This document shows positions 7,305 through 38,722 of a stretch of DNA of 45,218 nucleotides, piece by piece. The position numbers were made by a program, and so were the translations under genes. Each line of letters opens with the position of its first letter. The stretch's first letter is position 1. The stretch lies in contig CAYQZZ010000011.1 in the NCBI GenBank assembly GCA_964422155.1, positions 1 to 45,218 of the forward strand, written 5' to 3'. This DNA comes from an uncultured Dehalococcoidaceae bacterium (GTDB taxonomy: Bacteria; Chloroflexota; Dehalococcoidia; Dehalococcoidales; RBG-16-60-22). The notes under the pieces were generated by a model that ran no database searches, had not been told where the DNA came from, and was given only the letters and a program-made list of their open reading frames with translations.

Positions 7305-7345
7305 TGTCTCTTCAAACTATCTGAAGGAACAGGGGGCGCGAGCAT

Positions 7346-8725: not shown

Positions 8726-8750
8726 TATTTAAGCACGAGAGGAGGATGCA

Positions 8751-9449
8751 ATGGTCACTAAAAAGGAAAGAAATATAGAGGTTAAAGAAATTCTATATTT
8801 CGAAAAACCGGCGGGCAGGTCAAACACCAACAAGATGTTAGAGTTTATCACCGGGAAGATAGAAACCCTGGGACTACATCAAGTGATGATAGCCTGGTCC
8901 AGCGGGTATACACTGAGGAAATTCCTTGAAGCGACTAAAAATCTAAAGCTCAAACTCGATATTACGACGGTGACCAATCCCAAGGGAGGGACCATCGGCG
9001 GAAGGAATGTGTCTATCGACGATGAAACCCGGGAGGAACTCGAGGAAAAAGGTATAAAAGTCTGCTATCTCAATGACGACATGAGACTCGGCGAACCCAT
9101 GTCTCCATCCCCCGGGCAGAAGCTCATGAGAGACATGCTGCTTCCCTGGCTGCCGGCACATATTGACCCTTTAAGTCTCGATGTTGGGTGGGACCTGTCC
9201 CTCTTGCTCATAATAAGCCAGGGATTCCGTGTCTGTGTGGGGTGTCTGGCGCTTGCCGTAAAACATGGCCTAATCCCCGAGGGTGAGAGGGTGCTGTGTC
9301 TTGCCGGGTCAGCTACGGCGTGCGTCATGCAGGCCAGCGCATCCCCCCGAACGTGCTATGTTAAAGAAATTCTCAGCTATGAACGGAACTCTGATTGGTC
9401 ACAGATGAACCAATCAAGTTTGAAAAGAATGGTAGCCATAACAAAATAG
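8751..9449 (+). CDS. Hypothetical protein, last gene of the AOR/PrpD operon
   Basis: 232 aa. GAGGAGG RBS. 25 nt downstream of the PrpD-like gene. No family recognised. Confidence 0.6.
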   Translation: MVTKKERNIEVKEILYFEKPAGRSNTNKMLEFITGKIETLGLHQVMIAWSSGYTLRKFLEATKNLKLKLDITTVTNPKGGTIGGRNVSIDDETREELEEKGIKVCYLNDDMRLGEPMSPSPGQKLMRDMLLPWLPAHIDPLSLDVGWDLSLLLIISQGFRVCVGCLALAVKHGLIPEGERVLCLAGSATACVMQASASPRTCYVKEILSYERNSDWSQMNQSSLKRMVAITK

Positions 9450-13832: not shown

Positions 13833-15137
13833 TTAATATGTCATAAAACTGGGTAGCCAGGTAGCAAGAGCTGGAAAAACCATAAGTAAGACAGCTAAAA
13901 CGAACATGCACGCTAAAAATGGGAATATGCCCTTATAGATAGTGGTCAGAGGTACCCCTTCGGCGACTCCATAAATGACAAAAACATTTATTCCTACTGG
14001 GGGCGCGATAACGCCCATTTCTACCAGTACGACCATGATAACACCAAACCATATAGGGTCCCATCCTACCGACAATATGAGTGGATAAAATATGGGAATT
14101 GTCAATACGATCAGGGCAAGCTCATCCATAAACATGCTGATAACGTAATATATGGCTATTACCGCAATCAGCACCAGGTATTTATTCATGTGCATGGCTT
14201 CTACCCAGTTAACCAGCATAGTAGGTATATTGGTAACTGTTAAAAAGTGCCCAAAAACAAAAGCCCCGGCTACTATTACCATGATAAAGCAATTTATTCT
14301 TATAGCATCCCTGACACCGTTTAAAAATCCCTGCCAGGTAAGCTGTCTCCTGACCAGACCGATAACGATGACGCCGGCAGTTCCCGCAGCGGCAGCGTAG
14401 GTGGGGCTGAACCATCCCAGGAATATTCCCAGTATCACCAGTAAAAACAAAACTAATGCTTCAATTATTCCGGTCATGCCCTGGATTTTTTGCTTCCACG
14501 TGGTTGGGCCGCCGGGAGGGGCTAATTTGGGGTTGCGGATAGTTATAATTAATACCGTAACGGCAAAAAGAGTTGCCAGTATGATACCAGGAATAACACC
14601 TGATATAAATAACTTGCCTATGGAATTTTCAGTCATGATGCCATAGACAAGGAATATGGTACTGGGCGGGATGAGAATTCCCAGACTACCGGCAGCAGCC
14701 ACGCATCCTGTTGCCAGCGCATCGTCATATTTGTATCTTTTCATTTCAGGTAAAGAGACCCTGCCCATGGCCGCGGCGGTAGCATTAGTCGAGCCGCAGA
14801 TAGCAGAAAACATAGCACAAGCGGCTATGGTGGATATCGCCAGTCCGCCTGGCAGTCTACCAAACATGGTATATCCCGCATCGTACAATCGCCGGCTGAT
14901 GCCGGTATAGAAGGCAAGCGTACCCATCAGGATAAACATGGTTATGGCAGTATACGAATACGAAGAAAAAACGTCGAAAAGGTCTCTGGTAACAATGCTT
15001 AACCCCGGCCCGAGGCCCCTCAAAGCTGAGAAGCCGATAATACCGACAAGAGCCATGGCAAAACCGATGGGCATGCGCAGAAGAAAGAGAATGACCATGA
15101 AGACAGTCAGGACAATAGCAAGAGTTACCGGATTCAT
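13833..15137 (-). CDS. dctM: TRAP transporter large permease subunit
   Basis: 434-aa polytopic membrane protein. 4-nt overlap with the upstream small-subunit gene. Confidence 0.9.
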   Translation of the reverse strand: MNPVTLAIVLTVFMVILFLLRMPIGFAMALVGIIGFSALRGLGPGLSIVTRDLFDVFSSYSYTAITMFILMGTLAFYTGISRRLYDAGYTMFGRLPGGLAISTIAACAMFSAICGSTNATAAAMGRVSLPEMKRYKYDDALATGCVAAAGSLGILIPPSTIFLVYGIMTENSIGKLFISGVIPGIILATLFAVTVLIITIRNPKLAPPGGPTTWKQKIQGMTGIIEALVLFLLVILGIFLGWFSPTYAAAAGTAGVIVIGLVRRQLTWQGFLNGVRDAIRINCFIMVIVAGAFVFGHFLTVTNIPTMLVNWVEAMHMNKYLVLIAVIAIYYVISMFMDELALIVLTIPIFYPLILSVGWDPIWFGVIMVVLVEMGVIAPPVGINVFVIYGVAEGVPLTTIYKGIFPFLACMFVLAVLLMVFPALATWLPSFMTY

Positions 15138-15619
15138 CTGGTCCGCATCCTGAAAATATTAATGGTCTGCAGCAAGAGAACCAGAATGACAACTATGGCA
15201 CAGATACCCTGGAACCAGATAAAAGGGTAAATGGGCATTTCCACGGTCATGGAAACTTCACCTGATCTGAGTATGTCTATTCCGTACAGGAAACTTCTCC
15301 AGGCGACAATGCTCCAGAGTATTATCCCCAATACGTTTACGAATAAACCGATGATTTTTCGCCAGAATCGTGATAGCCGTGCTTCCAGAACCTCAACCTC
15401 AATATGACCATGATTTACCTGGACCTCAGGAATAGCGAAGACAATAGCTATCACCGCGACTAAACCGATACTATCAAATGACCAATTTAAGGGATTTTTA
15501 AATACTTTGTTCATGATTATATCGGCCACGGAAATTAATAATACGTAAATCATGCCGATACCAGCAATGACATGGAACCATTTAGACAAGGGAGTCATAA
15601 ATTTATCAAATTTTCCCAT
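15134..15619 (-). CDS. dctQ: TRAP transporter small permease subunit
   Basis: 161 aa with 4 TM segments. Overlaps dctM by 4 nt. Confidence 0.8.
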   Translation of the reverse strand: MGKFDKFMTPLSKWFHVIAGIGMIYVLLISVADIIMNKVFKNPLNWSFDSIGLVAVIAIVFAIPEVQVNHGHIEVEVLEARLSRFWRKIIGLFVNVLGIILWSIVAWRSFLYGIDILRSGEVSMTVEMPIYPFIWFQGICAIVVILVLLLQTINIFRMRTR

Positions 15620-15745
15620 TACAAAACATTCTCGTCATTATATTTTAAGAATATATGGTACTACCCCTGTATCGTTTAAAATCAGGGATGCACCGGTCTT
15701 AATCAGGACCAATGCATCCCCAATCTTTGTTTTTGAGCCTGGTAT

Positions 15746-16846
15746 CTATTTAGGTGCGAATGGAACTATATTTTTGTCTGCCCAATCGAGACACTCTTTC
15801 TCTGATGGGGCTTTCTTTCCCAATGTTGATACCCGCTCTATGAGGTATTTTTCATATTCAGCTACAGGACCCTTTGATGCTCTATCTGTTATATAGGCGT
15901 CAAGTGCCGGTTTGGCAGCGGCGACAAATCTTGCCATCTCATCTGGGGATAGCTCGATAAGTTCCTTGCCCGGCATCGATTTGAAGAGGTCAATGGCCGC
16001 TTTATCATAGGCTGTCCAGGACATAGCGTGTTTGTCTACCCATTGCTCGCTGATTTTGGTAATCTTATCCTGGATGTCTTTGGGAAGGGAATCCCACTTG
16101 GCTTTGTTCATACAAACGTAGAAGCCGGCGGTACTGCCTATTCCATAGGTGCCGGTCACGTAGTTGACCACCTCTGCCTGTTTCCATCCCTTAAGCGGCT
16201 CACGCGGAGTAAAGCTACCATCAATGGTGCCTTTGGACATCAGTTCATAGGCATCACCCTGACCGGCCGCGTAACCCTTGGCGCCCAGGGCTTCGATAAT
16301 TTTCGCACCGATACCCGTAGAACGGATAACCATACCCTTCAGGTCTTCCAGCTTTCTAACGGGTTTTTTGGTGGTGTAAATAACCTGTGGCCCGTGGGCA
16401 TGGAAATACAATAAGTGATATTTATCCCATTCGGCCAGCTTGTATTTACTCAGGAAATCCCAGGCAGTTTTGGTAGCTGTCCAGCCATCGGGATAGTTAT
16501 GAGGCATATCAATCAATTCACTGAGAGGAAAACGGCCCAGGGTGTAGGCGGTGCAGGACATACCGATATCAGCAATACCGGTTTCGACAGCATCGGCGAT
16601 TTTATTAGAGGCCGCCAGTTGCCCGGCAGGGTAATAGGTAATTTCCACCCGCCCGTTGGTCTGTTTTTTAATTTCGTCGCACCATTGTTTGGCGAGAATT
16701 GAGTTCCAGTTGGTCGGGGGGAAGAAATCGGCGTAGGTTAATTTAATAACTTCAGTGGGTTGGGTGGTTGCTTGGCAGGCAGAAAGGACAGGCAATAATA
16801 CAACTACCAAGGTAAGAGTAATTAAAACTAATAAAAATCTTTTCAT
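15746..16846 (-). CDS. dctP: TRAP transporter substrate-binding protein (lipoprotein)
   Basis: 366 aa. Lipoprotein signal ...LLPVLSAC. DctP-like fold. AAGGAGG RBS. Confidence 0.9.
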   Translation of the reverse strand: MKRFLLVLITLTLVVVLLPVLSACQATTQPTEVIKLTYADFFPPTNWNSILAKQWCDEIKKQTNGRVEITYYPAGQLAASNKIADAVETGIADIGMSCTAYTLGRFPLSELIDMPHNYPDGWTATKTAWDFLSKYKLAEWDKYHLLYFHAHGPQVIYTTKKPVRKLEDLKGMVIRSTGIGAKIIEALGAKGYAAGQGDAYELMSKGTIDGSFTPREPLKGWKQAEVVNYVTGTYGIGSTAGFYVCMNKAKWDSLPKDIQDKITKISEQWVDKHAMSWTAYDKAAIDLFKSMPGKELIELSPDEMARFVAAAKPALDAYITDRASKGPVAEYEKYLIERVSTLGKKAPSEKECLDWADKNIVPFAPK

Positions 16847-17369: not shown

Positions 17370-18833
17370 TTAGGGTAGCATAAGGGCCCAGCAACGCTCA
17401 TATTGGCGGTGATAAAATTCCGGTAAAACATCCGTCTCATGTTCGTGAAAAACTCTGAATTGTTTATCAGTATTTAATAAATTCAATATATCGCGAAGTC
17501 TCCCAATCATTTGCTGGTTACTCAGAGTTTTAACTAAGTTGTATCCGGATGGGAATGGGGCAGGAGCGTTCTTTAGTCTTTTTAGGAGCATACTTCCGGA
17601 AGAAATGTAAGAAACCATATCAATGAGTTTCTCATAAAAGACTACCGGACTATAATTCTTTAGCGTATGTACCAGGTATGGCATGTAATAAAAAGTAAAC
17701 GGCATGGCTGTCAAGATACGGCCTTCGCTTAAATATCTTTCGTATAGCGGAGTGTTTCCAAAGGGGACCGGAATATTAAAATTCGGCATAACGAAAGGAA
17801 CTCGAGATGCGAATTCCTTGGTCAACTCTACAGGTTCATCCCCTGTATCCACATCCAGACCGAAGATAAAATTGGCTTGAATTCCGGTAACGTAAGGCCG
17901 AATGATATTAAAATGCTCTATGACTTTTTCCAGTTTTTGTCGAGGAGCTATGATAGAGCCAGCTCCAGGCTTGTTTGAATAACCTGTCCATGATTCGATG
18001 CCCGGAATTATATAGAACTTCCCCAGGTTTTTCAGCCGCTCCAATCTGGAACCCCGCAGGATGGAGAGTGAAGTTTCCATCATATAACTGCTACGCCTGC
18101 GATTGGGTATCTTTTCCAGTACATCGAAGACTTGCTCGAATTTCACGGCAAAGTTGGGATCATGTAAACCGATCATCACCCTGGGGAAATGTTGGAAGAT
18201 ATAGCGCATATCTGCTTCTAGCTGGTCCAAAGATAAAAGTACATAGGGATTATTCCAATCAATACAGAAATCACAAGAATTAGGACAGCCAATGCTGGTT
18301 AACAACGGAATTGAAGTAAAAGGAAAGGGTTTACCCCTCAGGAAAGTGGATGCGCGGATTTCCGGCATTCGTTCTTGTACACTGGGGATACTGCCAAGGG
18401 CGCGCCCACTGGTGAGAATTTCTCCCCGAGGGGCATCTCTTAAAATCTCAGTTATTAGAGTCTTATCACAATCACGCACAACGATATCAAAGAAACGCAG
18501 ACAATCCTCGGGAAATTGTTTAGCATGAGGACCGCCCATGACCGTAAGCGTTTTCTCCTTGCGATACAGTTTTGCCAGCGCGTATGCCAGTGCACTTGCC
18601 TGAGTATAAGTTGAGATGAACACAACATCCAGATCGTTTGGTAGCAGTTGCTTGGGATCCTTATTGCCAAAATAGGTGGCATAGAAAACTTCGTGGCCCA
18701 GATTACGGCACCAGACGCTAATTGCCTGAGGCATGATACTGGCATATTGCTTGGTAACCAGATAGTTATATGCTGTATGATCCCATCTTCTGGTGGATCC
18801 GGCTCTCAATAGCTCAAGGATTCCTATTCTCAT
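17370..18833 (-). CDS. B12-binding domain-containing radical SAM protein (class B radical SAM)
   Basis: 487 aa. N-terminal cobalamin-binding-like domain followed by CPNSCDFC (CxxxCxxC) radical SAM cluster motif. Confidence 0.8.
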   Translation of the reverse strand: MRIGILELLRAGSTRRWDHTAYNYLVTKQYASIMPQAISVWCRNLGHEVFYATYFGNKDPKQLLPNDLDVVFISTYTQASALAYALAKLYRKEKTLTVMGGPHAKQFPEDCLRFFDIVVRDCDKTLITEILRDAPRGEILTSGRALGSIPSVQERMPEIRASTFLRGKPFPFTSIPLLTSIGCPNSCDFCIDWNNPYVLLSLDQLEADMRYIFQHFPRVMIGLHDPNFAVKFEQVFDVLEKIPNRRRSSYMMETSLSILRGSRLERLKNLGKFYIIPGIESWTGYSNKPGAGSIIAPRQKLEKVIEHFNIIRPYVTGIQANFIFGLDVDTGDEPVELTKEFASRVPFVMPNFNIPVPFGNTPLYERYLSEGRILTAMPFTFYYMPYLVHTLKNYSPVVFYEKLIDMVSYISSGSMLLKRLKNAPAPFPSGYNLVKTLSNQQMIGRLRDILNLLNTDKQFRVFHEHETDVLPEFYHRQYERCWALMLP

Positions 18834-19059
18834 ATCCCACTTTCCCCGTGTATTTTACCGCAAACGGGGTTTCTATGCGTTGCGGCTTTGACATTAATTT
18901 AAAGCGCCAAAAAACCAACCCATCAACTAAAAATAGATGGATTCGTACTAAACCGGGACAAAAGCACGAAACACCTATCCGTTTGACCTATGTTACCGGC
19001 TTCTTCAAAGGTAACTAAATGAGTTTTTATTACCTCAAATACCCCAGAAAGTTTGGTGT

Positions 19060-19752
19060 CTAGCTTTCTTTTACAGCTACAACAATTTCGCCAGGTAGGC
19101 CAAACAACTTTATTTTCTCCTCTTTTCTTATTTCGTATCCAGAATCCCTTAATGACTGCTCCAAATAGATAGGCCTGCAATCAACATATTTGGGCCACTT
19201 TCTATGTGCCCATTCATAAAGCCTCAGTAATAGAGATTCCCCGTTCTTTTTGGACATGCTGATAACCCCGATCCTACCCCTGGGCTTGAGGACTCTCTTC
19301 ACCTCTTCGAGCAGCCTTGGGATCTCAAGAGTATCGAAAAGCTCAAGGGTAAAGCTCATAAAGACCGCATCGAAAGTGTTGTCACCATACGGTAGACTCG
19401 TAGCATCTCCGCAATATAGCTTCACCCTATCCATCAGTTGGACCTTATCAAGCCTTCTCCTTGTGACATCCAGCATACCTGAGGAAATATCCACACCATA
19501 GACTTTGCCCGTCTTGCCAACGGACTCGGCCAATCGCTTTAAACAGTGCCCAGGCCCAAAACCGATTTCGAGCACGGTTGCGCCCTCTTCGACAGATAGC
19601 CGTTCAACAGCCATTTCGGCATATTTTCGCTCGAACGCTCCGGTAAGGTAATCGTAGACCCTGCTTATGCGGTCGTAGAAGCGTTTAGCTTCTTCTTTGC
19701 TTCTGCGAACAGGAAGTATATCTGGAGCTATTAAACCATTTTCCTCTTTCAT
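19060..19752 (-). CDS. Class I SAM-dependent methyltransferase (UbiE/COQ5-like)
   Basis: 230 aa. Motif I VLEIGFGPGHCLKRLAE. Motif post-I VYGVDIS. Confidence 0.85.
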   Translation of the reverse strand: MKEENGLIAPDILPVRRSKEEAKRFYDRISRVYDYLTGAFERKYAEMAVERLSVEEGATVLEIGFGPGHCLKRLAESVGKTGKVYGVDISSGMLDVTRRRLDKVQLMDRVKLYCGDATSLPYGDNTFDAVFMSFTLELFDTLEIPRLLEEVKRVLKPRGRIGVISMSKKNGESLLLRLYEWAHRKWPKYVDCRPIYLEQSLRDSGYEIRKEEKIKLFGLPGEIVVAVKES

Positions 19753-19950: not shown

Positions 19951-20922
19951 ATGAAAGATTTTGTTGGTAAAGTATGTTTTATAACCGGAGGCGCTTCTGG
20001 TGCCGGGTTCGGTCAGGCAAAGGTGTTTTCAGAGGCAGGCTGCAAGATTGCGATTGCAGATATTCGTCAGGACCATCTGGACGAGGCAAAGGCGTACTTC
20101 CGGGAGAAAAAGGTTAAAGTCCATGCGATAAGACTGGACATTACGGACCGCCAGGCATACGCGGCGGCGGCAGATGAGGTAGAAGAGGTGTTCGGTAGCC
20201 CTCCGCAGCTTTTATTCAATACGGCGGGTGTCAATGCCTTTGGTCCGGCTGAAGCCTCGACATTTGAAGATTATGATTGGGTAATGGGTGTTTGTCTTGG
20301 CGGCGTCATCAACGGTATGGTGACATTCGTGCCGCGTATGATAAAAGCCGGCAAGGGAGGCTATATCGCCACGACTTCCTCGATGGGAGGTTTTATGGGA
20401 ACATCCGGGTGTGCTCCATACTCGGCTGCCAAAGCCGCAGTTAATAATCTCATGGAGAGTTATTATCAGGCGCTCAAACCGTATGGTATAGGTGTATCTG
20501 TCCTGTGCCCGGGTGGTATCAAGTCAAATATTGCCGAGGCATCATTTACACGGCCAAAGCATCTGGCAAACACCGGGTATAATATTAATAAAAAGACAAT
20601 TGAATTTATGCGTTACCATTACTCTTTTGGAATAGACCCTGTGGAGCTGGCATACATACTTAAGAAGGGGATTGAAAACGAGCAACTCTTTATTATCCCG
20701 GTCCCGGACCCGGAGAGAATGTTGAGGGACAATTTTGAGCGGATTATCAATTATGCCACTCCTGAAGGCATGCAGAGACAGGAAGAGCTGATGAAGAAGC
20801 GCATGGAAGAAATGAGGAAACGCATGGGCAACAGTCCCATGATGGAGGGTGCAGTCGAAGCCGGATGGGGGAAAGCCAGGAAGGATATAACGTGGGTCAA
20901 AGAACACAGGGGCCCCTTTTAA
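19951..20922 (+). CDS. SDR family oxidoreductase with about 90-aa C-terminal extension (SDR-A, paired with selenoprotein A)
   Basis: 323 aa. ITGGASGAGFG motif and YSAAK catalytic motif. GGAGGA RBS. Paralog of 24568-25515. Confidence 0.9.
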   Translation: MKDFVGKVCFITGGASGAGFGQAKVFSEAGCKIAIADIRQDHLDEAKAYFREKKVKVHAIRLDITDRQAYAAAADEVEEVFGSPPQLLFNTAGVNAFGPAEASTFEDYDWVMGVCLGGVINGMVTFVPRMIKAGKGGYIATTSSMGGFMGTSGCAPYSAAKAAVNNLMESYYQALKPYGIGVSVLCPGGIKSNIAEASFTRPKHLANTGYNINKKTIEFMRYHYSFGIDPVELAYILKKGIENEQLFIIPVPDPERMLRDNFERIINYATPEGMQRQEELMKKRMEEMRKRMGNSPMMEGAVEAGWGKARKDITWVKEHRGPF

Positions 20923-20967
20923 ATCGAAGATTCAACTAAATGTTGAACATTCGAATGGAGGATAATA

Positions 20968-22731
20968 ATGTCAAGTGAAGTACGTTTTTCAGTAATAAGC
21001 CCCGAAGCTGGAATCCTGAAGGGTACGGGTGGATTTGGACCTCCCGGTATGGGCGGACCTCCGGGTAGACCTCCCGGTGGACCTCCGCCGGGTATGGGCG
21101 GACCGGCACTGTCTTCACCATCTTTTGCCAAGCGGCTGGACACACTGGAGAACAAAACTGTGTATCTGGTGGATATCGGTTTCGGGGGCGGCTATAATTT
21201 CATGCTGCAATTGCAGAAGTGGTTTACCGAAAATATGCCGTCCGTCACCGCGATAGTGAAGCGGAAACCGGGGAATGTGTTCATGGACGATAAGAATGAC
21301 CTCTGGGAGGAAATTAAAGCAAAGGGCCATGCCGTTGTCCTCGGCGTAGCCGGCTGACCGGGCTGTATTTCAGCGGTCGCTGGAGGCAGCACGAAACTTG
21401 AACAGAACTATGGTATCCCGGTTGCTCCTGTCTCAAGTTACACGATGGAAAGCGTTGCCAAGGATAACCCGAGAGCCGCTTCTTTACCTTTCATATATAC
21501 GCCACTTCCTGTGATAGGTATGTCTCCTGAAGTCCTCGACAGGTATATCGCAGGCAACGACCCGGATACCGGTAAACCTGTCATCAATGAAATAATCGAC
21601 GTATTGACAAAACCGGTAAGCAAAACGAAGCTGGCGCCTGAATCTCCCAAAACCGTAAAAGTCGGCGCTCCCCAGGAATTCCTTGAACCGGATACTGAAG
21701 ACAACTTGCAGCGTCTATTTTATGAAAGAGGGTGGACGGACGGATTACCCATCATACTTCCTACCGAGGAGCGGGTGAAGAAAATGCTCGCAGGCACCGG
21801 CGCTTCTCCGGACGAAGTGGTTGGTGAAACATTCCAGATGGATACCGGAAAACTTGTCAAGTACACTGTTGCCAATATTGCGGTTATGGCGGTCATGGCC
21901 GGCGCTAGGCCGGAACATTTTCCCGTGATACTGGCTGTTGCGTCCACCAGACAATCGTCGCTTATGCCCTCTACAACAGCCTTTTCAGCCATGCTTTTGG
22001 TGAATGGGCCAATTCGCAATGAGATTGGTATGAACTCCGGTATTGGCGCATTCAGTCCGGTAAATATGGCAAATTCGGTAATCGGCAGGGCATGGACGTT
22101 GATGAGCATTTGCTGGGGATATGCTAAGCCTAAAAAGACGTTGTGGAGTTCACAGGGGAGTAATCTTATCTATAATAATATGTGCGTTGCGGAGAATGAG
22201 GAGAGGAGCGTCTGGACGCCTTTTCATGTTGATAAGGGTTTCAAGGCTGAAGAGAGTGTGGTCAGTATCTTCCGGGGATGGGCTGTTATCAACAGTACCG
22301 GAGCAGCCTCCAACCGGACACTGGGGGAGGAACTGAATCTCGAGCTAGCCGTGATCCCGCCGCTTGATTCCGCGGCTACTATAATAATGGACCCGCTTGT
22401 TGCCAGGAATCTGAAGGAGAACGAGGGCTTTAGTACCAAGCAGGATTACTGCCGCTGGTTATCTAAGAACATCAAAATGCCGGCAGGACAATACTGGAAA
22501 ACAGATTATATAGATATGCTGGTGGCCTCTGAAGCATACAAGGGAATAGAGCCTTACGCTTCCTGGAAAAAGCTCCCCGATGACGCGCTGATAGCTCCCT
22601 ATCATAAACCGGACAATATTAATATCATTGTCGTAGGCGGAGAGACAAGTCCCTTATGGAAAGCTTCGGATTATCGCTACACAGCCAGCGTATCTATTGA
22701 TAAGTGGCGAGCGAATAAGTTGGATAATTAA
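20968..22731 (+). CDS. Candidate selenoprotein A (about 587 aa; in-frame TGA at 21355-21357 read as Sec in G-V-A-G-U-P-G-C). N-terminal Pro/Gly-rich linker plus Rossmann-like domain, C-terminal about 450-aa domain of unknown function
   Basis: ORFs 20968-21357 and 21445-22731 are in the same frame, separated only by TGA. The 87 nt between them keeps protein-level conservation with the paralog (E..YG[IV]P.AP[VI]). The paralog has TGA at the aligned position. A GU-loop hairpin lies 5 nt downstream. GGAGGA RBS at 20968. Confidence 0.6.
21362..21390 (+). promoter_or_regulatory. Putative bacterial SECIS element for selenoprotein A
   Basis: Lower stem GCUG(21362-65)/CAGC(21387-90), upper stem CAGC(21371-74)/GCUG(21379-82), apical loop GGUC(21375-78). 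The loop G is 18 nt from the UGA. This is the same loop as the E. coli fdhF SECIS. Confidence 0.4.
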
Positions 22732-22842
22732 TGCGAGGACGGAACACGCGGGCTTCCGGATAAGCCGGCTGATTATGACTAATTTTTCACGGGCTGTTTG
22801 CCGTGCGTTTAATAATTCGGAATTTAACCAATAAGGAGAGAG

Positions 22843-24534
22843 ATGAAGAAGAACGGAAAAATAACAGTATTAGACCCGAGAGGCCAGCCTACCGGCATCT
22901 TCGGGCGGCGGCTTGACCCCGATTCGCCTCCCTTTGCTATTCACGACCCCGTAAACCAGCCGAGAGATACGGCTGAAGCCTTGGGCGCACTTAAAATGGC
23001 GCCGCGCCTCGATAGACTGGAAGGCAAGACCGTTTACCTGGTTGATACGGGATTTGCCGGCGGCGCGGATTTTATGGCGGAGGTCCAGGACTGGTTTACC
23101 CGTCACCGACCGGACGTGAAGACCGAGCTGCGCCACAAGAAGACCAGCATGTTCACCGACGAGCCGGAGCTCTGGGCTGAAATCAAGAAAAATGGCGACG
23201 CGGTCGTCTTCGGCGTGGGCGGCTGAGACGGCTGTTCGGCGAGTATCGCCGAGTTTGCCCGGACGATGGAGAGCGACTACGGGGTGCCGACAGCTCCTAT
23301 TGTCACCGCCCGTTTCGCGGACTATGTCCAGCGCGACGGCCGGAGCCACGGCATGAACCTCCGCTGGAGCTTTCCCCCCTACCCTGTAGGCTTCATCCCC
23401 CGCGAGACACTGCATGGCTATGTCGAGGGCAATGACCCTGTTTCCGGCGTACCCCTCATGGAGGAGGTTATTTCCGCCCTCACCCAGCCGCTGACGGACG
23501 CAGAGAAAACCTACAAGGCGGAAAAGAGACCGAAACGGCCGCGCCTGCTCGAACCGGATACCGAGATGAACCTCCACCGCCTCTTTTTGGAAAACGGCTG
23601 GACTGACGGTCTCCCTATCGTCCTGCCCACCGAAGAGCGCGTAGCGGAGATGCTTACCGGCACCGGCCGCGACCCCCAGGAATTCGTCGGCATGATGTCC
23701 GTGACAACCCATGAGGAGAGGCTCCAGTATGCGGTGGAGAGAGTCGCAGTCATCGCTGTCATGGCCGGGGCCAGGCCGGAGCACTTCCCGGTTATCCTGG
23801 CGTTAGGCGCCTCGGGGCGGCCTTCCATGCCCAGCTCGACGACTTCCTTCGCGAGCATGATGGTGGTAAACGGTCCCATCCGCGACCAGATAGGGATGAA
23901 CAGCGGCCTTGGCGCCTTAAGCCCGGTCAATTACGCCAACTCCGTTATAGGCAGGGCATGGACGCTGATGAGCATTAACTTCGGGGATGTCCGGCCTGGA
24001 GCCACATTCACTGCCAGCACCGGAACCACAATCAATTACAACAACATGTGCTACGCCGAGAACGAAGAGAACAGAGTCTGGCAGCCTTTCCACGTGCGTA
24101 AAGGCTATAAGGCAGGTGAAAGCACGGTGAGCTTTTTCCGAGGCTGGAGTGTCCTCGGCTTCAATACTGGCCCAGTCCAGCGGATGCTGGAAGTCATGAA
24201 AAGTATCGGCGGCCCCTTCGGCGGCTCGTTTACTTTCGTTATCGACCCCCTCGTGGCAAAGAGCCTGAAAAAGGAAGGCTATGATGACCCGTTCAAGCTG
24301 AGTGAGTGGCTCGTGAACCAGACGAATGCCCGTTTCAAGCGCCCGGAGATGGTGAACTTCGTCGTCGTCGGCGGTGAAATGAACCCGATGTGGGTTACGA
24401 CTGATTTCTCTTATTTCCAGACGGTCGTTATAGACCCGTGGATTCCTAAAGCCGGCATCAAGAAAGACGCCAGACCGCTCCGGATGCCGGTGGCATTAGC
24501 CTGTAAGGATGGTTCCTGCGGCATCTCGCATTAG
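22843..24534 (+). CDS. Candidate selenoprotein B (about 563 aa; in-frame TGA at 23224-23226 read as Sec in G-V-G-G-U-D-G-C), paralog of selenoprotein A but lacking the Pro/Gly linker
   Basis: ORFs 22843-23226 and 23266-24534 share a frame across a single TGA. The N-terminal domain aligns with A (LEGKTVYLVDTGFAGG / LENKTVYLVDIGFGGG; VVFGVGGU / VVLGVAGU). The C-terminal domain aligns along its length (GWTDGLPI[IV]LPTEERV, AVMAGARPEHFPVILA, NMC.AENEE..VW). AAGGAGAG RBS. Confidence 0.6.
23235..23253 (+). promoter_or_regulatory. Putative bacterial SECIS element for selenoprotein B
   Basis: Stem UUCGGCG(23235-41)/CGCCGAG(23247-53) with apical loop AGUAU. The loop starts 16 nt after the UGA and contains GU. 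Confidence 0.35.
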
Positions 24535-24567
24535 TTGCTTATAATACGGAAAGGAAAAGTTTTTATC

Positions 24568-25515
24568 ATGAAGGACCTAAAAGGAAAAGTAGCTTTTATT
24601 ACCGGCGGCGCCAGCGGCATCGGGCTGGGGATTGCCAAGGCCTGCGCCAAATACGGCATGAAGGTGGTCATCGTTGATATGCGCCAGGACGCTCTGGATG
24701 AAGCGACGGCTTATTTCAAAAAGGCTAAACTGCCTGTCCATCCCATCAATCTGAACGTTACCGACCGCGTCGCTTATGTTAAAGCCGCCGATGAGGCGGA
24801 AAAAGTCTTCGGCAAGATACACGTGCTGGTCAATAACGCCGGCGTAGGCTCGGGCGGTCCGCTGGAGAGATTAACTTACAAAGATTGGGATTACAGCATG
24901 GGCGTCAACGTAGGCGGCGTTATCAACGGTGTGATGACGATTGTACCGCGCATCCTGAAGCACGGGGAGGGCGGCCACATCGTCGCCACTTCCTCGACCT
25001 GCGGCCTTATGGGCTCGAGCAACTTCTCTATCTACTGCACGACCAAGTACGCCGTGGCAGGCTTGATGGAGTGCCTCGCTTCCGAGCTTCAGAATAAAGG
25101 GATTGGGGTTTCGATACTGGTTCCCGGGCCGACGATGGGCAATCTTGGTTTATCCTCTTTTGTCAATCGCCCCGCTCATCTAAGGAACGAGGGAGAAACC
25201 TGGCCTCCTAAAATGCCTCCGCCCCCGAGGGACGGTCAGCCGCCCCGTCGGCCGCCGGGGGAAATGAAGGATGTATTTATGGACCCGGCAGAGACCGGCG
25301 AGCGCGTATTGCGGGCTATCAAGAATAACGACCTTTTCATCATCACCCATACGGAATGGAAGGCGGGTTTCAACGCCCGCAACGAAGCGATAATGCGCGC
25401 CTGCCCGGATGAGCCGCGGAATGAAAAGCGCTGGGAAGTAATTCAGCATTTCGGGGATATAATATATAATGATATTTATGATAAACAGAAACAGATAGGC
25501 CCGCCTGACTGGTAA
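24568..25515 (+). CDS. SDR family oxidoreductase with Pro-rich C-terminal extension (SDR-B, paired with selenoprotein B)
   Basis: ITGGASGIGLG motif and YCTTK catalytic motif. AGGAAA RBS before the ATG at 24568; the ORF-track start at 24535 is an upstream extension. Paralog of 19951-20922. Confidence 0.9.
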   Translation: MKDLKGKVAFITGGASGIGLGIAKACAKYGMKVVIVDMRQDALDEATAYFKKAKLPVHPINLNVTDRVAYVKAADEAEKVFGKIHVLVNNAGVGSGGPLERLTYKDWDYSMGVNVGGVINGVMTIVPRILKHGEGGHIVATSSTCGLMGSSNFSIYCTTKYAVAGLMECLASELQNKGIGVSILVPGPTMGNLGLSSFVNRPAHLRNEGETWPPKMPPPPRDGQPPRRPPGEMKDVFMDPAETGERVLRAIKNNDLFIITHTEWKAGFNARNEAIMRACPDEPRNEKRWEVIQHFGDIIYNDIYDKQKQIGPPDW

Positions 25516-25734: not shown

Positions 25735-27528
25735 TTAGGGCGCACCAGCATCATAAACAATTTTACCGCCAACGACAGTCATTAAATTCTGTATATCTCC
25801 TATCTCCTTCGGGGAAATAGTCAAGATATCTTTGTCCAGAATACAGAAATCAGCCAGCTTGCCTACCTCGATAGAGCCCTTAATATCCTCCATATGGTTT
25901 AGCCAGGCACCCTCAATGGTGTACATGCAGATGGCTTGCTCCGCGCTAAGCCCTTGGAAAATAGCCCCCTGTATCCCCAGTTTCCAGTCTGGCCCGGCAC
26001 AAGGAGCATCAGAGCCTCCAGCAACATGAACGCCACGATCAATCAACTCCTTTAATCCCGATGACATTGATCCTGTTGGCATAGCTGGCATACCGCCAAA
26101 CAGTTGCATAAGTTCAAGCATCATACCCGGCTGGGTCGAAATACCAATATCGCATTCAGCCATACTTCTTGCCTTTTCTACTGATATGGCGGCACCATGT
26201 ATAATATAATGGCGTAGACCTTTCGGATTATTATGCTCAGCCTTGATGAAGCTGTCGGCGCAGACATCAGAGGCTCTGTCACCGATAGCATGGATACCTA
26301 CCTGAACACCGAGTTCATGGGCATAGGCGATGATGTTTGCCAGAGATTGGATGCGTTCTTCGTCTGTCTCTCCAGGCGAATTAAGAGTCCCGTAGCTGCC
26401 GTCAGGGTACGGCTTATAGTTCCAGGAAGTCCGCATCATCGGGTTGCCGTCAGCGAAGAACTTGGTACCGGATATTCTTAGCCACCCATTGTCAAAGCTG
26501 CCGTGCATGTCGGCGGATGTTAGGCCTTTTTTTATTTCGTCAATATTGCAGGTATTATAAGGGGTAAAGACCTCCAAAATGCTGACCCGCATCGTCAGCT
26601 TGCCCTCATTGTAGATTTCCTGGTAAGCGCGGATACACTCATCGTCCCAGGTCCCTTGATAATCCCCGCGGGTGCCGGGCCCCAGGGCGCCGTTGGTAAT
26701 GCTGGTTATCCCCAGTGCATTGAGCTCACGCATGGCCGCCAGGGCTGCCTGTTTTTTATCCTCCAAATCATAAGCGGGAAGTGCTTTTTTTACCACCAAA
26801 TCCATAGGCATACCCTTTAGTAAACCAGTAGGTTCTCCGGTGTCTCTGTCTTTGACAATCTCCCCTATCGCAGGGAACGGAGTATCCTTGGTGATGCCAA
26901 CAATCTCAATGGCCTTACTGTTAAGTAAATCAACGGGTGGTAAAAAGCTAAAGTAACCGACAGTAAGACAGACTGGATTATTCGGAGATACCGGGTCTAG
27001 ATCCCACCGTGTTGGGAGCTTGGCTGGGTATTGCTTATATTCCTTTATAGCATCCAAATTTAGCCCTATACCAATTATCCACTCGCCTGGTTCAACCGTT
27101 TGAGCCTTCTTCTCCACTGCAATCACGATATCAGCAATTGTCTTTATTTTCGGGTCGGTGAGATCAATTACTAAAGGAGACTTCTCACTGCCGAAGAGAA
27201 TGCTATGAACATGCGTATCATTGATTCCTGGAAGCATGGTTTTACCCTTAAGGTCCAAAACCTTCGTATTCTTGCCGACTAACGTTTTAATCTCCTCATC
27301 CGTACCAACGGCGATAATTTTGTCGCCTTTCACCGCCACCGCCTGCGCGATAGAGAAGCTTTTGTCAACCGTGACTACCTTGCCATTGTAGATGACCAGA
27401 TCAGCCGCTTGCTCCTCAGGAATATTCGCCGGTGACAGCCCTCTGTCGCAGGATGTCATCAGGGGTAAAGAGACTAAAAGCAGGGCCATAAGGAGACCAA
27501 GGAATAGTACAACCACTCTGTTTTTCAT
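25735..27528 (-). CDS. Amidohydrolase family protein (amidohydrolase_3-type), secreted lipoprotein
   Basis: About 597 aa from MKNRVVVLF... AAGGAGGG RBS. Signal/lipobox ...LPLMTSC. Metal-binding HxH near the N-terminus (NDTHVHS) and a C-terminal D-containing motif typical of amidohydrolases. The ORF-track start at 27597 is an upstream extension. Confidence 0.85.
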   Translation of the reverse strand: MKNRVVVLFLGLLMALLLVSLPLMTSCDRGLSPANIPEEQAADLVIYNGKVVTVDKSFSIAQAVAVKGDKIIAVGTDEEIKTLVGKNTKVLDLKGKTMLPGINDTHVHSILFGSEKSPLVIDLTDPKIKTIADIVIAVEKKAQTVEPGEWIIGIGLNLDAIKEYKQYPAKLPTRWDLDPVSPNNPVCLTVGYFSFLPPVDLLNSKAIEIVGITKDTPFPAIGEIVKDRDTGEPTGLLKGMPMDLVVKKALPAYDLEDKKQAALAAMRELNALGITSITNGALGPGTRGDYQGTWDDECIRAYQEIYNEGKLTMRVSILEVFTPYNTCNIDEIKKGLTSADMHGSFDNGWLRISGTKFFADGNPMMRTSWNYKPYPDGSYGTLNSPGETDEERIQSLANIIAYAHELGVQVGIHAIGDRASDVCADSFIKAEHNNPKGLRHYIIHGAAISVEKARSMAECDIGISTQPGMMLELMQLFGGMPAMPTGSMSSGLKELIDRGVHVAGGSDAPCAGPDWKLGIQGAIFQGLSAEQAICMYTIEGAWLNHMEDIKGSIEVGKLADFCILDKDILTISPKEIGDIQNLMTVVGGKIVYDAGAP

Positions 27529-27665
27529 CGCATCCCTCCTTCGGTTCAGTGAACCATGGTTTATTGGTGCGTCGTCAGCATTTATAGCGCAACCCACGTA
27601 ATAGACAATTTAGTTAATTGAATTCTTCTTATCAAGTCAAGTGGTTATATTGTAGCTTTTATCGC

Positions 27666-28256
27666 TTAGTGGCCCTCATGGGGAACGTCATACCTCGGCG
27701 TGAGTGCAATAATCACCATGGTGATGGCTTTGTCCACCTTCTTGAAGTTGAGGGGGCAGTGCGGCATGCCTTTGGGGAAGAAGAGCACCGTGGGGGAGGT
27801 GATAACGTACCTTTCTTGGTCCTCCCCCTGGCCGATATAGCATTCAATCTCGGCATCGAAATCCGAGATGTCCTGTGGGTCAGAGCCGAAGAACATCATG
27901 AATTCCTCAAAGTCGTGTGAGTGCGGGAAGGGGACCATATCCACGGGCTTGGTGATGAAGCGATATATGAAGCGGCAATTGGCGTTTTCGTAGTTTTCCC
28001 CTTGCAGGTCTATCCACGGCCCATGTATCGGCCCCGGCTCTATTGGTAGCGGGGTCACATACTTAGCGTACTTTCCGGCTGTCATCACTCCATTAGTCTC
28101 CTCATTGGCCGAGGCCGTAGGTGCCTTCACCGGCACTGCCGCCGGCTCTGTTGTCGGCACGGGGGTCGTGGTACAGCCAGTAAAGATGCTTACTGATAGC
28201 GCCAGTACCAGAAGCCCTGCCAGCAAAATACTTACCAACTTCTTTTTACTTTTCAT
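27666..28256 (-). CDS. Cupin-like small protein family member 1 (lipoprotein version)
   Basis: 196 aa. Signal plus lipobox ...SIFTGC. Core shares PHSHDFEEF, DFDAEIE and P.G..H.P motifs with 33374-33799 and 36312-36872. Confidence 0.7.
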   Translation of the reverse strand: MKSKKKLVSILLAGLLVLALSVSIFTGCTTTPVPTTEPAAVPVKAPTASANEETNGVMTAGKYAKYVTPLPIEPGPIHGPWIDLQGENYENANCRFIYRFITKPVDMVPFPHSHDFEEFMMFFGSDPQDISDFDAEIECYIGQGEDQERYVITSPTVLFFPKGMPHCPLNFKKVDKAITMVIIALTPRYDVPHEGH

Positions 28257-33373: not shown

Positions 33374-33799
33374 CTAGTCCGTTGTATTGCCCACTCTTGA
33401 GTATTTTGCCGTCACGGCGACGTCCACGAACAGGACAGGTTTGTTTATCCTGGCGAAGTTTATCGGGCCGTGCATCAGGCCGGCCGGGATATATGCCGCC
33501 GTGGGCGACTTGATAATATGCTTTTCCTGCTCTTCGCCCAGCGTAATCTCGATTTCTGCATCGAAATCCCTGGCGTTATTCGGGTTTGCCGAGAAAAAGC
33601 TCAAATACTGGGGGAACTCATGCTTGTGGGGCTGGGATATCATCAGGTGGGGGCCTGTGATGTAAATGCTATCGATGGACAGGTGCCCCCCACCGAACTT
33701 GTCCAGGTGCCTGGTGCTGGTAACGTGGGAGCCCTCGTGTTTCGGGTCCTCTTTAACGACTTCCGTGGTAAGATATTTATCGTATTTCGTTTTGGCCAT
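33374..33799 (-). CDS. Cupin-like small protein family member 2
   Basis: 141 aa starting MAKTKYDKY. AAGGAG RBS. Motifs PHKHEFPQY, DFDAEIEITLGEEQEKHIIKSPT, PAGLMHGP. Confidence 0.7.
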   Translation of the reverse strand: MAKTKYDKYLTTEVVKEDPKHEGSHVTSTRHLDKFGGGHLSIDSIYITGPHLMISQPHKHEFPQYLSFFSANPNNARDFDAEIEITLGEEQEKHIIKSPTAAYIPAGLMHGPINFARINKPVLFVDVAVTAKYSRVGNTTD

Positions 33800-35033: not shown

Positions 35034-36185
35034 TTATTGCGGTATCATCTCCGGCAGGCCCGGCAAAGCGGTGGTCATCCACCTGGTGGCATCCCTGCCG
35101 ATGAAATACATGTCTCCAATCATGGTAAACGGCGCTTTCCCGCCTTTGCATCTTACCATAGGATGGACGGCATAGACCTCATCGGTCAGGATGGTCCACT
35201 CCATGTAGTCGCGCTCATGGGGACCGGCGGTAATATAGGGGGCGTCCCCATAAGACAGCCCGACGGCATGGCCCAGCTTATCGCATTCGAAACCCCAGTC
35301 GTTTACCAGATCCTCAATTTTTTGACCGGCTTCCGTAATTTCCAGGCCGGGGCGGAACTCCCGCACTATCATCTGTCTCATTTCAGCCCAAAGAGAGAAC
35401 ATTTTTTTGTACACCCCCTTGGGTTCCTCCCACCAGTAACCGCGTATCATTTGAGCGCCATAGCCCGCGTTACGGGTGAACTCCGGGGAAAACGTCACCG
35501 GGTTCGGCTTCTGTATCACCGTCGGGCCGGGACGGTAAGGATAAGCCGCCTCCGGTCGACTGTGTATTAAAATAATCCTGTCGATAATATCGTGGGCGGT
35601 CAGGACTTCATTGGCTTTATTGACGACCTGTTCTTCGGTGAGGCCGGGCTTCAAATTAGCTAGGAAGGTGTAATGGGCCAGGTCAGAGATGCGGATGGCG
35701 TTATCCATGATAGCCAGCTCCTCGCGGCTCTTGGGACCTCTTATTTCACCGAAAAGACGATGCGCTTCCACGAGCCTGACATCGGGGCAAAGCTCGGAAA
35801 AAGTCTGGTATTCGAACACCGGCCAGAAGCGGAAGCTGTCTATACCGACCTGTGTTTTCTGGTGATTGAGGTCGATTATAATTTTAGCCGCGTCTATGGC
35901 CAGGTTAAATGAGGAGCGGATATTCTCCGTTTCCACCCAGCAGCCCTGTTTGACCAGCTGCTCGCCCGTCATGCCCGTGTTGCTGGGGATTAGAAAAACT
36001 GGCTCGCCATCGACCGGGAAAATCACCATGTTCTGCTTGCTGCCCCAGATATGCGTCAGGTAGTGGACAGGCACGCCCAGCTGGGTGCCCCCGTAGACGA
36101 TAAGCGCCGAAAGCCCGGCTTTCTGCAACGTCTTCCGCAGCAACGACCAGCGGCGTCCTTTTTCTTTCAGACTAAGTTCCGGCAT
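35034..36185 (-). CDS. M24 family metallopeptidase (Xaa-Pro dipeptidase/creatinase-like)
   Basis: 383 aa. Creatinase/prolidase N-domain plus pita-bread catalytic domain. GGGGAGGTGA RBS. Bracketed by two copies of the MITE-like repeat. Confidence 0.85.
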   Translation of the reverse strand: MPELSLKEKGRRWSLLRKTLQKAGLSALIVYGGTQLGVPVHYLTHIWGSKQNMVIFPVDGEPVFLIPSNTGMTGEQLVKQGCWVETENIRSSFNLAIDAAKIIIDLNHQKTQVGIDSFRFWPVFEYQTFSELCPDVRLVEAHRLFGEIRGPKSREELAIMDNAIRISDLAHYTFLANLKPGLTEEQVVNKANEVLTAHDIIDRIILIHSRPEAAYPYRPGPTVIQKPNPVTFSPEFTRNAGYGAQMIRGYWWEEPKGVYKKMFSLWAEMRQMIVREFRPGLEITEAGQKIEDLVNDWGFECDKLGHAVGLSYGDAPYITAGPHERDYMEWTILTDEVYAVHPMVRCKGGKAPFTMIGDMYFIGRDATRWMTTALPGLPEMIPQ

Positions 36186-36205
36186 GGGTCACCTCCCCTC
36201 GGTAT

Positions 36206-36300
36206 TGTCATTCTGACCCCGATGCAATCGGGGGAAGAATCCGTCTCCCAGGATTACGGATTCTTCGTCGTCCGCCTGAAGCGGACTCTTCAGAATGACA
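36206..36300. repeat. MITE-like structured repeat copy B
   Basis: TGTCATTCTGACCCCGATGCAATCGGGGGAAGAATCCGT...ACGGATTCTTC...CCGCCTGAAGCGG...TCTTCAGAATGACA. Nested palindromes. Same orientation as copy A. Confidence 0.6.
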
Positions 36301-36311
36301 AAAAATAATAA

Positions 36312-36872
36312 TTACCACTCGCGTTTCATCTTCTTCGCCAGCTTGAGAACCCTCTCCTCGCTTTCATAGCCCTGGTCGATAAACAGCAGATTGTCTCTCT
36401 CTTCATCGGACACCAGCTCCTGGTAAGATTTCTCCGTGTGTGTGGGCGATTGTTCGACGGTTACCATGATAAACGGCCTCGTTACTTTTCTAATTATCCA
36501 GGGTCCATGTATAAAATCGGCAGGTAAATAGACCAGGTCGGAGGTAGTGAGAATGTGCTTTTCCAGCTCCGGGCCCAGACAAAATTCAACCTCGCCGCCC
36601 AGGTCCAGCGGATTTTCCGGGTCTGTCCCGAGATGTATCACTACTTCGGGAAATTTATGTTTATGCGGTCCGTGCCCCATCTGCTCCCATGAGGAAACTC
36701 CGGGCAATCCCTGGGGAACGACAGGTACCCAGTGAATGTAATACTGGTGGCTGCCCAGATAGGCGTTATTATTGACTTTATCATCCGCAAAGGCTACAAT
36801 CGCACCGGTGCCGGCCGGGTTCCACGGCCTTGGTCCGGATAAAATATATTTGTCGTATTTTGTTTTCGCCAT
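36312..36872 (-). CDS. Cupin-like small protein family member 3 (with about 50-aa C-terminal extension)
   Basis: 186 aa starting MAKTKYDKY. AAGGAG RBS. Motifs PHKHKFPEV, GGEVEFCLGPELEKHILTTSD, PADFIHGP. Confidence 0.7.
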   Translation of the reverse strand: MAKTKYDKYILSGPRPWNPAGTGAIVAFADDKVNNNAYLGSHQYYIHWVPVVPQGLPGVSSWEQMGHGPHKHKFPEVVIHLGTDPENPLDLGGEVEFCLGPELEKHILTTSDLVYLPADFIHGPWIIRKVTRPFIMVTVEQSPTHTEKSYQELVSDEERDNLLFIDQGYESEERVLKLAKKMKREW

Positions 36873-36883
36873 TTTCTTGCTCC

Positions 36884-37297
36884 TTACTTTTTGGTTACCT
36901 CGACAATGCCGGCGTCAGCGTCAACCTTAACCCAATCACCGGTCTTGATTACCTCCAGCGGGTTTTTATCCAGTTCGGTCATGGCCGGGGCGTGTAAAAG
37001 TACAGCGGATAAAGCGGCCTTGGTGGTCATATCGTTGAAAATAAGAGCCTTGGGCGCGGTGCCTACCAATCGGGTAGCATGGAATGCCATCGATGTCCCC
37101 GAAGAACCCTTGGTCCCGGGAAATACGAGCACCTTGTCCTTAAAACTCTGCCCTCTTAACTCGTGGCGCCTTTCCGTAATGATGCCTTTAACCGCGTCAA
37201 TACCGCCCCATCCGGATATGGTATCTCTGGTGACGAGCGCTTCGCCCTCAACACAACCGCCAACGACTTTCCGGCCGTGAAGCACTATTTTCTTCAT
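36884..37297 (-). CDS. Aconitase X swivel-domain subunit (DUF126)
   Basis: Start MKKIVLHG. Its ATG overlaps the TGA stop of the upstream large subunit (ATGA). GGAAGGGAGAA RBS. DUF126-like length and composition. Confidence 0.75.
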   Translation of the reverse strand: MKKIVLHGRKVVGGCVEGEALVTRDTISGWGGIDAVKGIITERRHELRGQSFKDKVLVFPGTKGSSGTSMAFHATRLVGTAPKALIFNDMTTKAALSAVLLHAPAMTELDKNPLEVIKTGDWVKVDADAGIVEVTKK

Positions 37298-38716: not shown

Positions 38717-38722
38717 CTATAA

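Follow-up and report, generated by a model that had tools for sequence, protein, structure and literature searches.

The 45,218-nt window analysed here, positions 1 to 45,218 of contig CAYQZZ010000011.1 from an uncultured Dehalococcoidaceae bacterium, carries at 19951-25515 a block of four genes, two encoding short-chain dehydrogenases/reductases (SDR-A and SDR-B) and two encoding predicted selenoproteins (Sel-A and Sel-B). Judged from sequence comparison, the block is two anciently diverged copies of a two-gene SDR + selenoprotein module, and each module is probably a catabolic pair whose SDR is probably NAD-dependent. To this explanation as a whole we would give a probability of about 0.6. 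Its structural and genetic description is highly probable, and the mechanism that we propose, which draws on motifs and gene context, is tentative and stands below even odds.

The comparisons were made with a working set of about 100 related loci, assembled from genome and metagenome collections and contig look-ups. An earlier note on this DNA had placed all four genes on the plus strand in the order SDR-A, Sel-A, Sel-B, SDR-B, and this was borne out by the open reading frame (ORF) table and the read-through translations, as was the inversion of order between the pairs (SDR before Sel-A, Sel-B before SDR). The paralogy that it claimed was upheld as well, with SDR-A and SDR-B sharing 47% identity over 260 aa (E 6e-71) and Sel-A and Sel-B 44% over 539 aa (E 2e-151). 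The long antisense ORF that it regarded as artefactual is present, and analogous antisense ORFs lie over the homologs in 28 other loci, as expected of coding sequence rich in G+C at third codon positions (GC3). SDR-B is likely to start at ATG 24568, which is preceded by a purine-rich AAGGAA and is the start used by gene calls on other contigs; TTG 24535, also considered, is a less likely start. Scanning the block for promoters and terminators gave no useful information.

Both TGA codons interrupting the block's longer genes are predicted to encode selenocysteine (Sec), and the U-x-G-C selenoproteins of the earlier note proved genuine on the evidence of the codon column, the hairpin and the conservation across the stop. 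At the homologous codon, TGA was found at 103 of 109 sites and TGC at 6, with TAA or TAG at none; that is, an in-frame UGA stands where homologs have Cys. For example, Sel-A orthologs on other contigs (70-83% identity) have TGA at the identical site, and in a Desulfobacteraceae homolog, P0076, one uninterrupted ORF of 599 aa has C-D-G-C at the Sec position. Alignments made with tblastn continue through the stop, protein conservation is unbroken between the TGA and the next ATG, and the PF24696 matches of both Sel proteins span the TGA. The downstream ATGs chosen by gene callers (21445 in Sel-A and 23266 in Sel-B) have no Shine-Dalgarno (SD) sequence. Hundreds of the homologs listed have been deposited as a UGSC fragment of about 125-165 aa plus a 'hypothetical protein' of 393-476 aa, because gene callers stop at the Sec codon. 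We found no further credible Sec sites among the other TGA-split ORF pairs in the window.

Just 3' of each UGA lies a stem-loop with G/U in its apical loop, as in a Sec insertion sequence (SECIS). The outer helix of the Sel-A hairpin reaches approximately 21359-21393, with a fold of -17.2 kcal/mol; across 36 sequences of the Sel-A and USTC types, 81% of cells pair and four of the six pairs have changed on both sides, a covariation reached in 0 of 500 shuffles. Every cell of the Sel-B-type stem is paired in 35 distinct homologs, with one compensatory change from G-C to U-A, and codons 5-9, which form this hairpin, have a synonymous third-position entropy of 0-0.3 bits, compared with mostly 0.9-1.9 bits downstream. 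No SECIS or other RNA family of Rfam matched, either in the whole window at gathering thresholds or in 20900-24600 at E<=10, and the hairpin was therefore demonstrated by covariation instead.

Clustering of neighbouring ORFs revealed the SDR as the sole common neighbour of Sel homologs, in 27 of 86 loci, and 25 adjacent SDR-Sel pairs were found. The order is fixed by type: the SDR precedes Sel-A in 9/9 A-type pairs and follows Sel-B in 12/12 B-type pairs. Partnering is also type-specific, SDR-A-like proteins being found with Sel-A-like and SDR-B-like with Sel-B-like proteins, and adjacency is near-universal among orthologs of at least 63-65% identity, which by their source names are mostly Dehalococcoidales. 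The co-inheritance that the earlier note supposed was examined on pairwise distances, and those between Sel proteins correlate with those between their partner SDRs (Mantel r 0.90 overall, a value reached in 0 of 2000 permutations, and 0.73 for the B type by itself). The conserved two-gene module of that note is thus supported by a fixed order in 21/21 orthologous pairs and by this correlation; in a wider survey of neighbourhoods the adjacency held in Dehalococcoidales-like orthologs but was missing in most distant clades, homologs from Desulfobacterota, Acidobacteriota and soil clades being mostly without an SDR neighbour, and it reappears in haloarchaea. Modules occur alone (SDR, SDR, Sel-A in L004; Sel-B, SDR in L015), divergently (L017, L096 and L098) or as B then A (L020) and so behave as separable units, the mirrored layout of the present block being one way among several in which two stable units are arranged. 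One expanded locus has MarR, zinc-dependent alcohol dehydrogenase (Zn-ADH), SDR, SDR and Sel-A on one strand and Sel-B followed by three SDRs on the other.

The second pair had been described in the earlier note as visibly GC-richer, and the difference held when computed: GC3 was 0.522 in SDR-A and 0.527 in Sel-A, against 0.727 in Sel-B and 0.649 in SDR-B. From this contrast the note had argued against a recent in-situ duplication and for separate acquisition of the modules. A recent duplication is indeed excluded, by the 44-47% identity and without appeal to GC, but GC as a sign of separate acquisition did not stand. The paralogs have inherited this difference in GC, since in all six genomes with both of them Sel-B has a GC3 of 0.61-0.74 and Sel-A one of 0.49-0.60, regardless of arrangement. 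Sel-B has the highest GC3 of the 32 window genes (range 0.385-0.727), but 12 window genes outside module B reach at least 0.60, and the codon usage of Sel-B and SDR-B correlates with that of these 12 genes, pooled, at r 0.70-0.76, the same range as among those genes themselves. The window as a whole falls into two codon classes, one at about 0.39-0.53 (TRAP transporter, radical SAM, methyltransferase, amidohydrolase and NUDIX genes) and one at about 0.60-0.73 (IlvD, AcnX, PALP, HcyBio, AcrB, Sel-B and SDR-B), which could reflect expression level or gene age.

On these grounds it is unlikely that the modules were acquired separately by horizontal transfer, with the GC-rich second pair a foreign recent arrival. 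The GC3 gap of 0.12-0.20 is real, modules do occur singly and in varied arrangements in other genomes, and Sel-A-like and Sel-B-like genes of 64-70% identity are present in Desulfobacterota (L007), so that transfer between phyla probably happened at some time. However, a contrast of the same direction in all six genomes, together with matching codon usage in a compositionally two-class window, does not support a recent separate acquisition, and the 44-47% identity already excludes a recent in-situ duplication. Related genomes, probably of Dehalococcoidales, have inherited the two modules together, along with their GC3 contrast; the high GC3 of module B could stem from codon selection or from a transfer older than the split between these genomes. 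Neither the mirror arrangement nor the GC contrast means much in itself.

Each selenoprotein consists of an N-terminal UGSC domain, at aa 52-190 in Sel-A (PF24696, 35.1 bits) and aa 34-192 in Sel-B (72.1 bits), followed by a C-terminal uncharacterised domain (C-domain) of about 370 aa. With a gathering score of 25 bits, both proteins belong to the UGSC family PF24696, and both carry its U/C-x-x-C motif, as UPGC and UDGC. Against NF041046 they score 29.5 and 47.9 bits, below the equivalog cutoff of 125 bits; they are related to the proteins of about 150 aa for which that model stands but are not their equivalogs, and at 587 and 563 aa, with the extra domain, they are not small stand-alone proteins of that kind. 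The motif varies by subclade (UDGC, UPGC, USTC, UGSC, UEAC and UHGC), the literal UGSC/CGSC occurring in other subclades alone, but U/C128 and C131 are invariant in 100% of 85 full-length homologs. The N-domain has a predicted flavodoxin-like fold, in which Sec-x-G-Cys would lie at the end of strand β3 and the start of helix α3; we found no thioredoxin fold around the UxxC, although a thioredoxin-like fold had been guessed for UGSC in 2008 (PMC2398784). A PDB sequence search with the N-domain gave noise or nothing.

For the C-domain there was no Pfam or NCBIfam match, even at E<=10, and no sequence or fold match in PDB, where a profile search gave noise or nothing; nor did longer architectures with a C-domain core (709-741 aa) contain Pfam domains. 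Ten of its polar or charged residues (Sel-B numbering) are nevertheless invariant over 85 diverse sequences, namely D255, T263, T274, N343, N353, N366, R371, E406, E408 and H417, and they have the look of an active site; C403 is also present in 73% of the 85. The C-terminal C-x4-C tail of Sel-B is present in 27/32 UDGC, 5/5 UEAC and 8/14 UPGC but 0/17 USTC proteins, and Sel-A has no C-terminal Cys tail. Sel-A begins with a Pro/Gly-rich low-complexity stretch, GGFGPPGMGGPPGRPPGGPPPGMGGP (aa 1-48, 20968-21110), of which there is none in Sel-B. In P0076 (L014, 10001-10100) there is an extra N-terminal hydrophobic helix ending in FYSC and resembling a lipoprotein signal; this homolog would be membrane-anchored or exported if the signal is real, and a mis-called start is also possible.

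The family is large, with more than 6,500 database proteins at E<=1e-5 among the matches listed and 290 representatives, at 50% identity clustering, scoring E<=1e-30. Homologs of 76-87% identity bear source names of Dehalococcoidales, and a search of genome contigs with a single protein recovered nine close Cys- or Sec-form loci in Desulfobacterota and Acidobacteriota. Two metagenome contigs, L033 and L051, have four Sel paralogs per locus (UEAC, UHGC, UPGC and another) and no SDR neighbours; such arrays suggest a diversified substrate specificity.

Other lineages surround the homologs with different genes. In the USTC-type clade, a flavoprotein of about 305 aa resembling thioredoxin reductase (TrxR-like; Pyr_redox_2, CxxC) adjoins the homolog in seven metagenomic loci, together with TctC, and a Variovorax boronicumulans plasmid has a TrxR-like gene, then TctC, then a 545-aa Cys-form (CGSC) homolog, the products being WP_319362314, WP_319362313 and WP_319362312. 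In Haloterrigena turkmenica pHTUR01 (L102, 6956-10638), the two domains are encoded apart by neighbouring genes (Cys forms), as a CGSC protein of 193 aa and a C-domain protein of 371 aa with most of the invariant motifs (DGLP, PPT, NGP, GR, ENE and H), and these genes are followed by a TrxR-like gene (CAKC) and an SDR; WP_012944946, WP_012944947 and WP_012944948 belong to this set. An equivalent split pair in Halalkalicoccus jeotgali (L103, 6737-8341) lies near tripartite ATP-independent periplasmic (TRAP) transporter and SDR genes. A Desulfobacteraceae metagenome-assembled genome has its homolog among HdrA-like, MvhD and ferredoxin-domain (Fer4) genes, and in Neorhizobium galegae it follows genes for malonyl-CoA decarboxylase and synthase. 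Transporters of the TctC or TRAP type are encoded near homologs in several clades, haloarchaea and Comamonadaceae among them, and in the window, and these carboxylate transporters are a weak hint at an organic-acid substrate.

The mechanism that we tentatively propose is as follows. The UGSC domain would be a redox module and the C-domain its substrate-binding catalytic partner; the U-x-x-C centre would cycle between selenol/thiol and selenenylsulfide forms, and a small substrate bound in the C-domain would receive from it either reducing equivalents or a nucleophilic selenolate. The oxidised centre would be recycled by a lineage-specific disulfide reductase, which in other clades may be the adjacent TrxR-like flavoprotein or Hdr-like complexes and here a reductase encoded elsewhere, possibly acting through the C-x4-C tail of Sel-B. 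Rather than reducing the selenoprotein, the SDR would convert a hydroxyl or keto group of the same substrate in a neighbouring step, one possibility being that the carbonyl so made primes a bond beside it for reductive cleavage that depends on Sec. An organic acid with hydroxyl or keto groups is the probable substrate, and the two modules may handle different substrates or stereoisomers. A broader proposal, about which we are doubtful, is that the fused or split UGSC + C-domain unit is an unrecognised class of Sec- or Cys-dependent substrate reductases with a new catalytic fold, which would be recycled by a flavoprotein or an Hdr-type reductase and would reduce, or reductively cleave, small organic acids prepared by SDRs.

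Several observations weigh against the catabolic-pair explanation. No SDR adjoins the homolog in 59 of the 86 loci, and its absence beside most distant homologs means that the coupling could be incidental or confined to certain lineages; the modules have no reductase gene next to them in the window; and the association between transporters and homologs is loose. In addition, the 45-kb window contains no selA, selB, selC or selD and no tRNA genes, and the Sec capacity of the organism is therefore deduced from the conserved TGA and the hairpin, together with the report that Dehalococcoidia are rich in selenoproteins (PMC13326102). An AIRS-family gene at 43579-44640, considered as a possible SelD, was rejected as not SelD.

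As an alternative, the selenoproteins might be general thiol-redox, stress or metal(loid) proteins, the adjacency of SDRs being a matter of operon packing. Most uncharacterised UxxC selenoproteins have been classed in reviews as probable thiol oxidoreductases (PMC2398784, PMC13188914), and SDR genes are abundant in the window, with three others besides those of the block. This alternative is nevertheless unlikely, because the gene order within each type is fixed in all 21 orthologous pairs, the two families co-diverge and SDR adjacency recurs in haloarchaea, and because the large C-domain with its invariant polar residues and the presence of up to four paralogs per locus suggest substrate-specific enzymes.

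The SDR might instead be the dedicated NAD(P)H-dependent reductase of the selenoprotein's Se-S bond, a possibility to which the tight, type-specific adjacency and the co-divergence would lend themselves. In classical SDRs, however, hydride passes to a carbonyl or C=C group, and enzymes of this family are not known to reduce disulfides or selenenylsulfides. Moreover, the redox partner adjoining the homologs in other clades is a TrxR-like flavoprotein with CxxC, some loci have two or three SDRs and a Zn-ADH per selenoprotein, which fits substrate processing better than a 1:1 reductase, and the Asp at the end of strand β2 suggests NAD+-linked oxidation; we regard this role as improbable. Of the two-component reductase/dehydrogenase system envisaged in the earlier note, the conserved pairing therefore stands, whereas the SDR as a dedicated reductase is doubtful in view of SDR chemistry and of the TrxR-like neighbours elsewhere. 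Finally, that the TGAs are true stops, the locus consisting of UGSC fragments and separate hypothetical proteins or of pseudogenes, would agree with public gene calls and with the lack of an Rfam SECIS match but is effectively refuted by TGA, never TAA or TAG, in one exact column at 103 sites with Cys at 6, by unbroken conservation past the TGA, a conserved hairpin and internal ATGs devoid of SD sequences, and by the existence of full-length single-ORF Cys forms.

Table 1. Features of the SDR-selenoprotein block, in window coordinates
Feature	Position	Strand	Description
SDR-A	19951..20922	+	classical SDR, 323 aa; GGAGG 7 nt 5' of ATG
Sel-A	20968..22731	+	587-aa predicted selenoprotein by TGA read-through; SD GGAGG before 20968
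Predicted Sec codon (TGA) of Sel-A	21355..21357	+	U130-P-G-C133; context G-V-A-G-U-P-G-C
Sel-A SECIS-like hairpin	21369..21384	+	6-bp stem; apical loop GGUC at +21 to +24 from the U of UGA
Sel-B	22843..24534	+	563-aa predicted selenoprotein by TGA read-through; SD AGGAG before 22843
Antisense ORF	22870..23784	-	304 aa; artefact of GC3-rich coding sequence
Predicted Sec codon (TGA) of Sel-B	23224..23226	+	U128-D-G-C131; context G-V-G-G-U-D-G-C
Peptide across the Sel-B Sec			GVGG-U-DGCSASIAEFAR
Sel-B SECIS-like hairpin	23236..23252	+	stem UCGGCGA/UCGCCGA, loop GUA
Sel-B C-terminal C-x4-C tail	24502..24519	+	C554-K-D-G-S-C559; candidate redox relay
SDR-B	24568..25515	+	classical SDR, 315 aa; equal 315-aa gene call on other contigs

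Both SDRs have the features of classical members of the family (adh_short HMM, TGxxxGxG and YxxxK). SDR-A scores 137 bits against Pfam adh_short, with TGGASGAG, YxxxK and an Asp at the end of strand β2 (ADIR), which suggests a preference for NAD; its nearest NCBIfam model is PRK06194, with a score under the cutoff. SDR-B scores 162.8 bits, with TGGASGIG, YxxxK and VDMR. Three further SDR genes are present in the window, two of them in a catabolic cluster at 828-9449 that also contains an FAD_binding_2 protein, a tungsten-type aldehyde:ferredoxin oxidoreductase, an ATC-hydrolase-like protein, an MmgE/PrpD protein and a 232-aa protein without a Pfam family.

Among the other genes of the window, a complete TRAP transporter (DctM, DctQ and DctP; 13833-16846, minus strand) lies 3-7 kb upstream of the block, and directly upstream of it are a B12-binding radical SAM protein (487 aa) and a UbiE/COQ5-type methyltransferase (17370-19752, minus strand), for which no link with the block was found. 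Convergent with SDR-B is an Amidohydro_3 metal hydrolase of 620 aa with an N-terminal hydrophobic segment (25735-27597, minus strand), an adjacency seen on the near-identical contigs L001-L003 only. A small protein without a Pfam match of its own, encoded on the minus strand at 27666-28256 and again at 33374-33799, clusters with weak Cupin_2-like proteins; this cluster recurs beside Sel/SDR modules in L007, L010, L015, L017 (two copies), L022 and L028 and may be an additional module component. At 35034-40453 (minus strand), genes for an M24/creatinase-type peptidase, an AcnX protein, whose best NCBIfam match is cis-3-hydroxy-L-proline dehydratase (under cutoff), and an IlvD/EDD dehydratase follow in a row and may serve together in the catabolism of amino acids or hydroxy acids.

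From 2005-2008 onwards, UGSC-containing proteins have been counted with the most abundant selenoproteins of prokaryotes. They are known as an abundant family of unknown function (PMC2398784, PMC9312934, PMC13188914), and a 2026 review still gives that function as unknown (PMC13188914). The value of the present locus lies in the functional handles that it offers on this long-standing orphan family. A very large UGSC clade consists of two-domain, enzyme-like proteins instead of small single-domain ones, and public annotation nearly always splits their genes at the Sec codon into a 'UGSC' protein of about 125 aa and a 'hypothetical protein' of about 420 aa; the C-domain has no detectable structural relative. 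The partners vary with lineage (SDRs, a TrxR-like flavoprotein, TctC/TRAP and Hdr-like proteins) and together suggest an electron path and a substrate class. For sediment Dehalococcoidales, a group known for its wealth of selenoproteins, the modules point to an unrecognised Se-dependent catabolic capacity, at two or more copies per genome, and the question can be approached by experiment through the Cys-form homologs of Variovorax, Neorhizobium and Haloterrigena, which are culturable. If the substrate-reductase reading is true, a further kind of substrate-reducing selenoenzyme would stand beside the glycine and proline reductases, and a function would be assigned to one of the most abundant orphan selenoprotein families of aquatic and sediment metagenomes.

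Of the known systems, the nearest is the UGSC family itself (PF24696 and NF041046; Sargasso Sea and Global Ocean Sampling (GOS) selenoproteomes), which shares the N-domain of about 160 aa, Sec in U-x-x-C and the existence of Cys homologs. A 'UGSC/Unknown_1' fusion, whose second part could correspond to the present C-domain, is mentioned in a 2008 paper (PMC2398784); none of the C-domain motifs was found among the sequences listed in the accessible portion of the GOS supplement. Some close homologs of the Sel proteins are named 'UGSC family (seleno)protein' by NCBI. The present proteins differ from those described in having the fused domain of about 370 aa, a length of 563-587 aa versus about 150 aa, UPGC or UDGC instead of UGSC and a predicted fold that is flavodoxin-like, not thioredoxin-like.

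In glycine and D-proline reductases, the Sec of GrdB or PrdB is the nucleophile in a reductive cleavage beside a carbonyl or carboxyl group, and the thioredoxin system recycles the enzyme. These too are large catabolic selenoproteins of anaerobes. Their UxxC motif is given in a published table (PMC2398784). The Sel proteins have no sequence relationship to them, the GRDB HMM PF07355 giving no match even at E<=10, and neither a pyruvoyl subunit nor a GrdA-like partner is encoded nearby; any likeness is confined to the proposed mode of action.

A reductase gene beside that of its thiol-disulfide client is the usual layout for a dedicated pair, as with low-molecular-mass thioredoxin reductases. 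The Pyr_redox_2 CxxC gene encoding about 305 aa beside a UGSC-domain gene in the USTC-type and CGSC-type clades and in haloarchaea is of this kind, although no such gene adjoins the modules here and the client is not of thioredoxin fold. In the β-aryl-ether (Lig) pathway of Sphingobium, the NAD-dependent stereospecific SDRs LigD, LigL, LigN and LigO turn a hydroxyl group into a ketone, which activates the neighbouring bond for thiolate attack by the thiol-dependent LigE, LigF and LigG, and the adduct is then released reductively. The Sel proteins have no homology to the etherases of that pathway, which are of the glutathione S-transferase family, and the nucleophile here would be a protein selenolate; the likeness between the two systems is purely conceptual.

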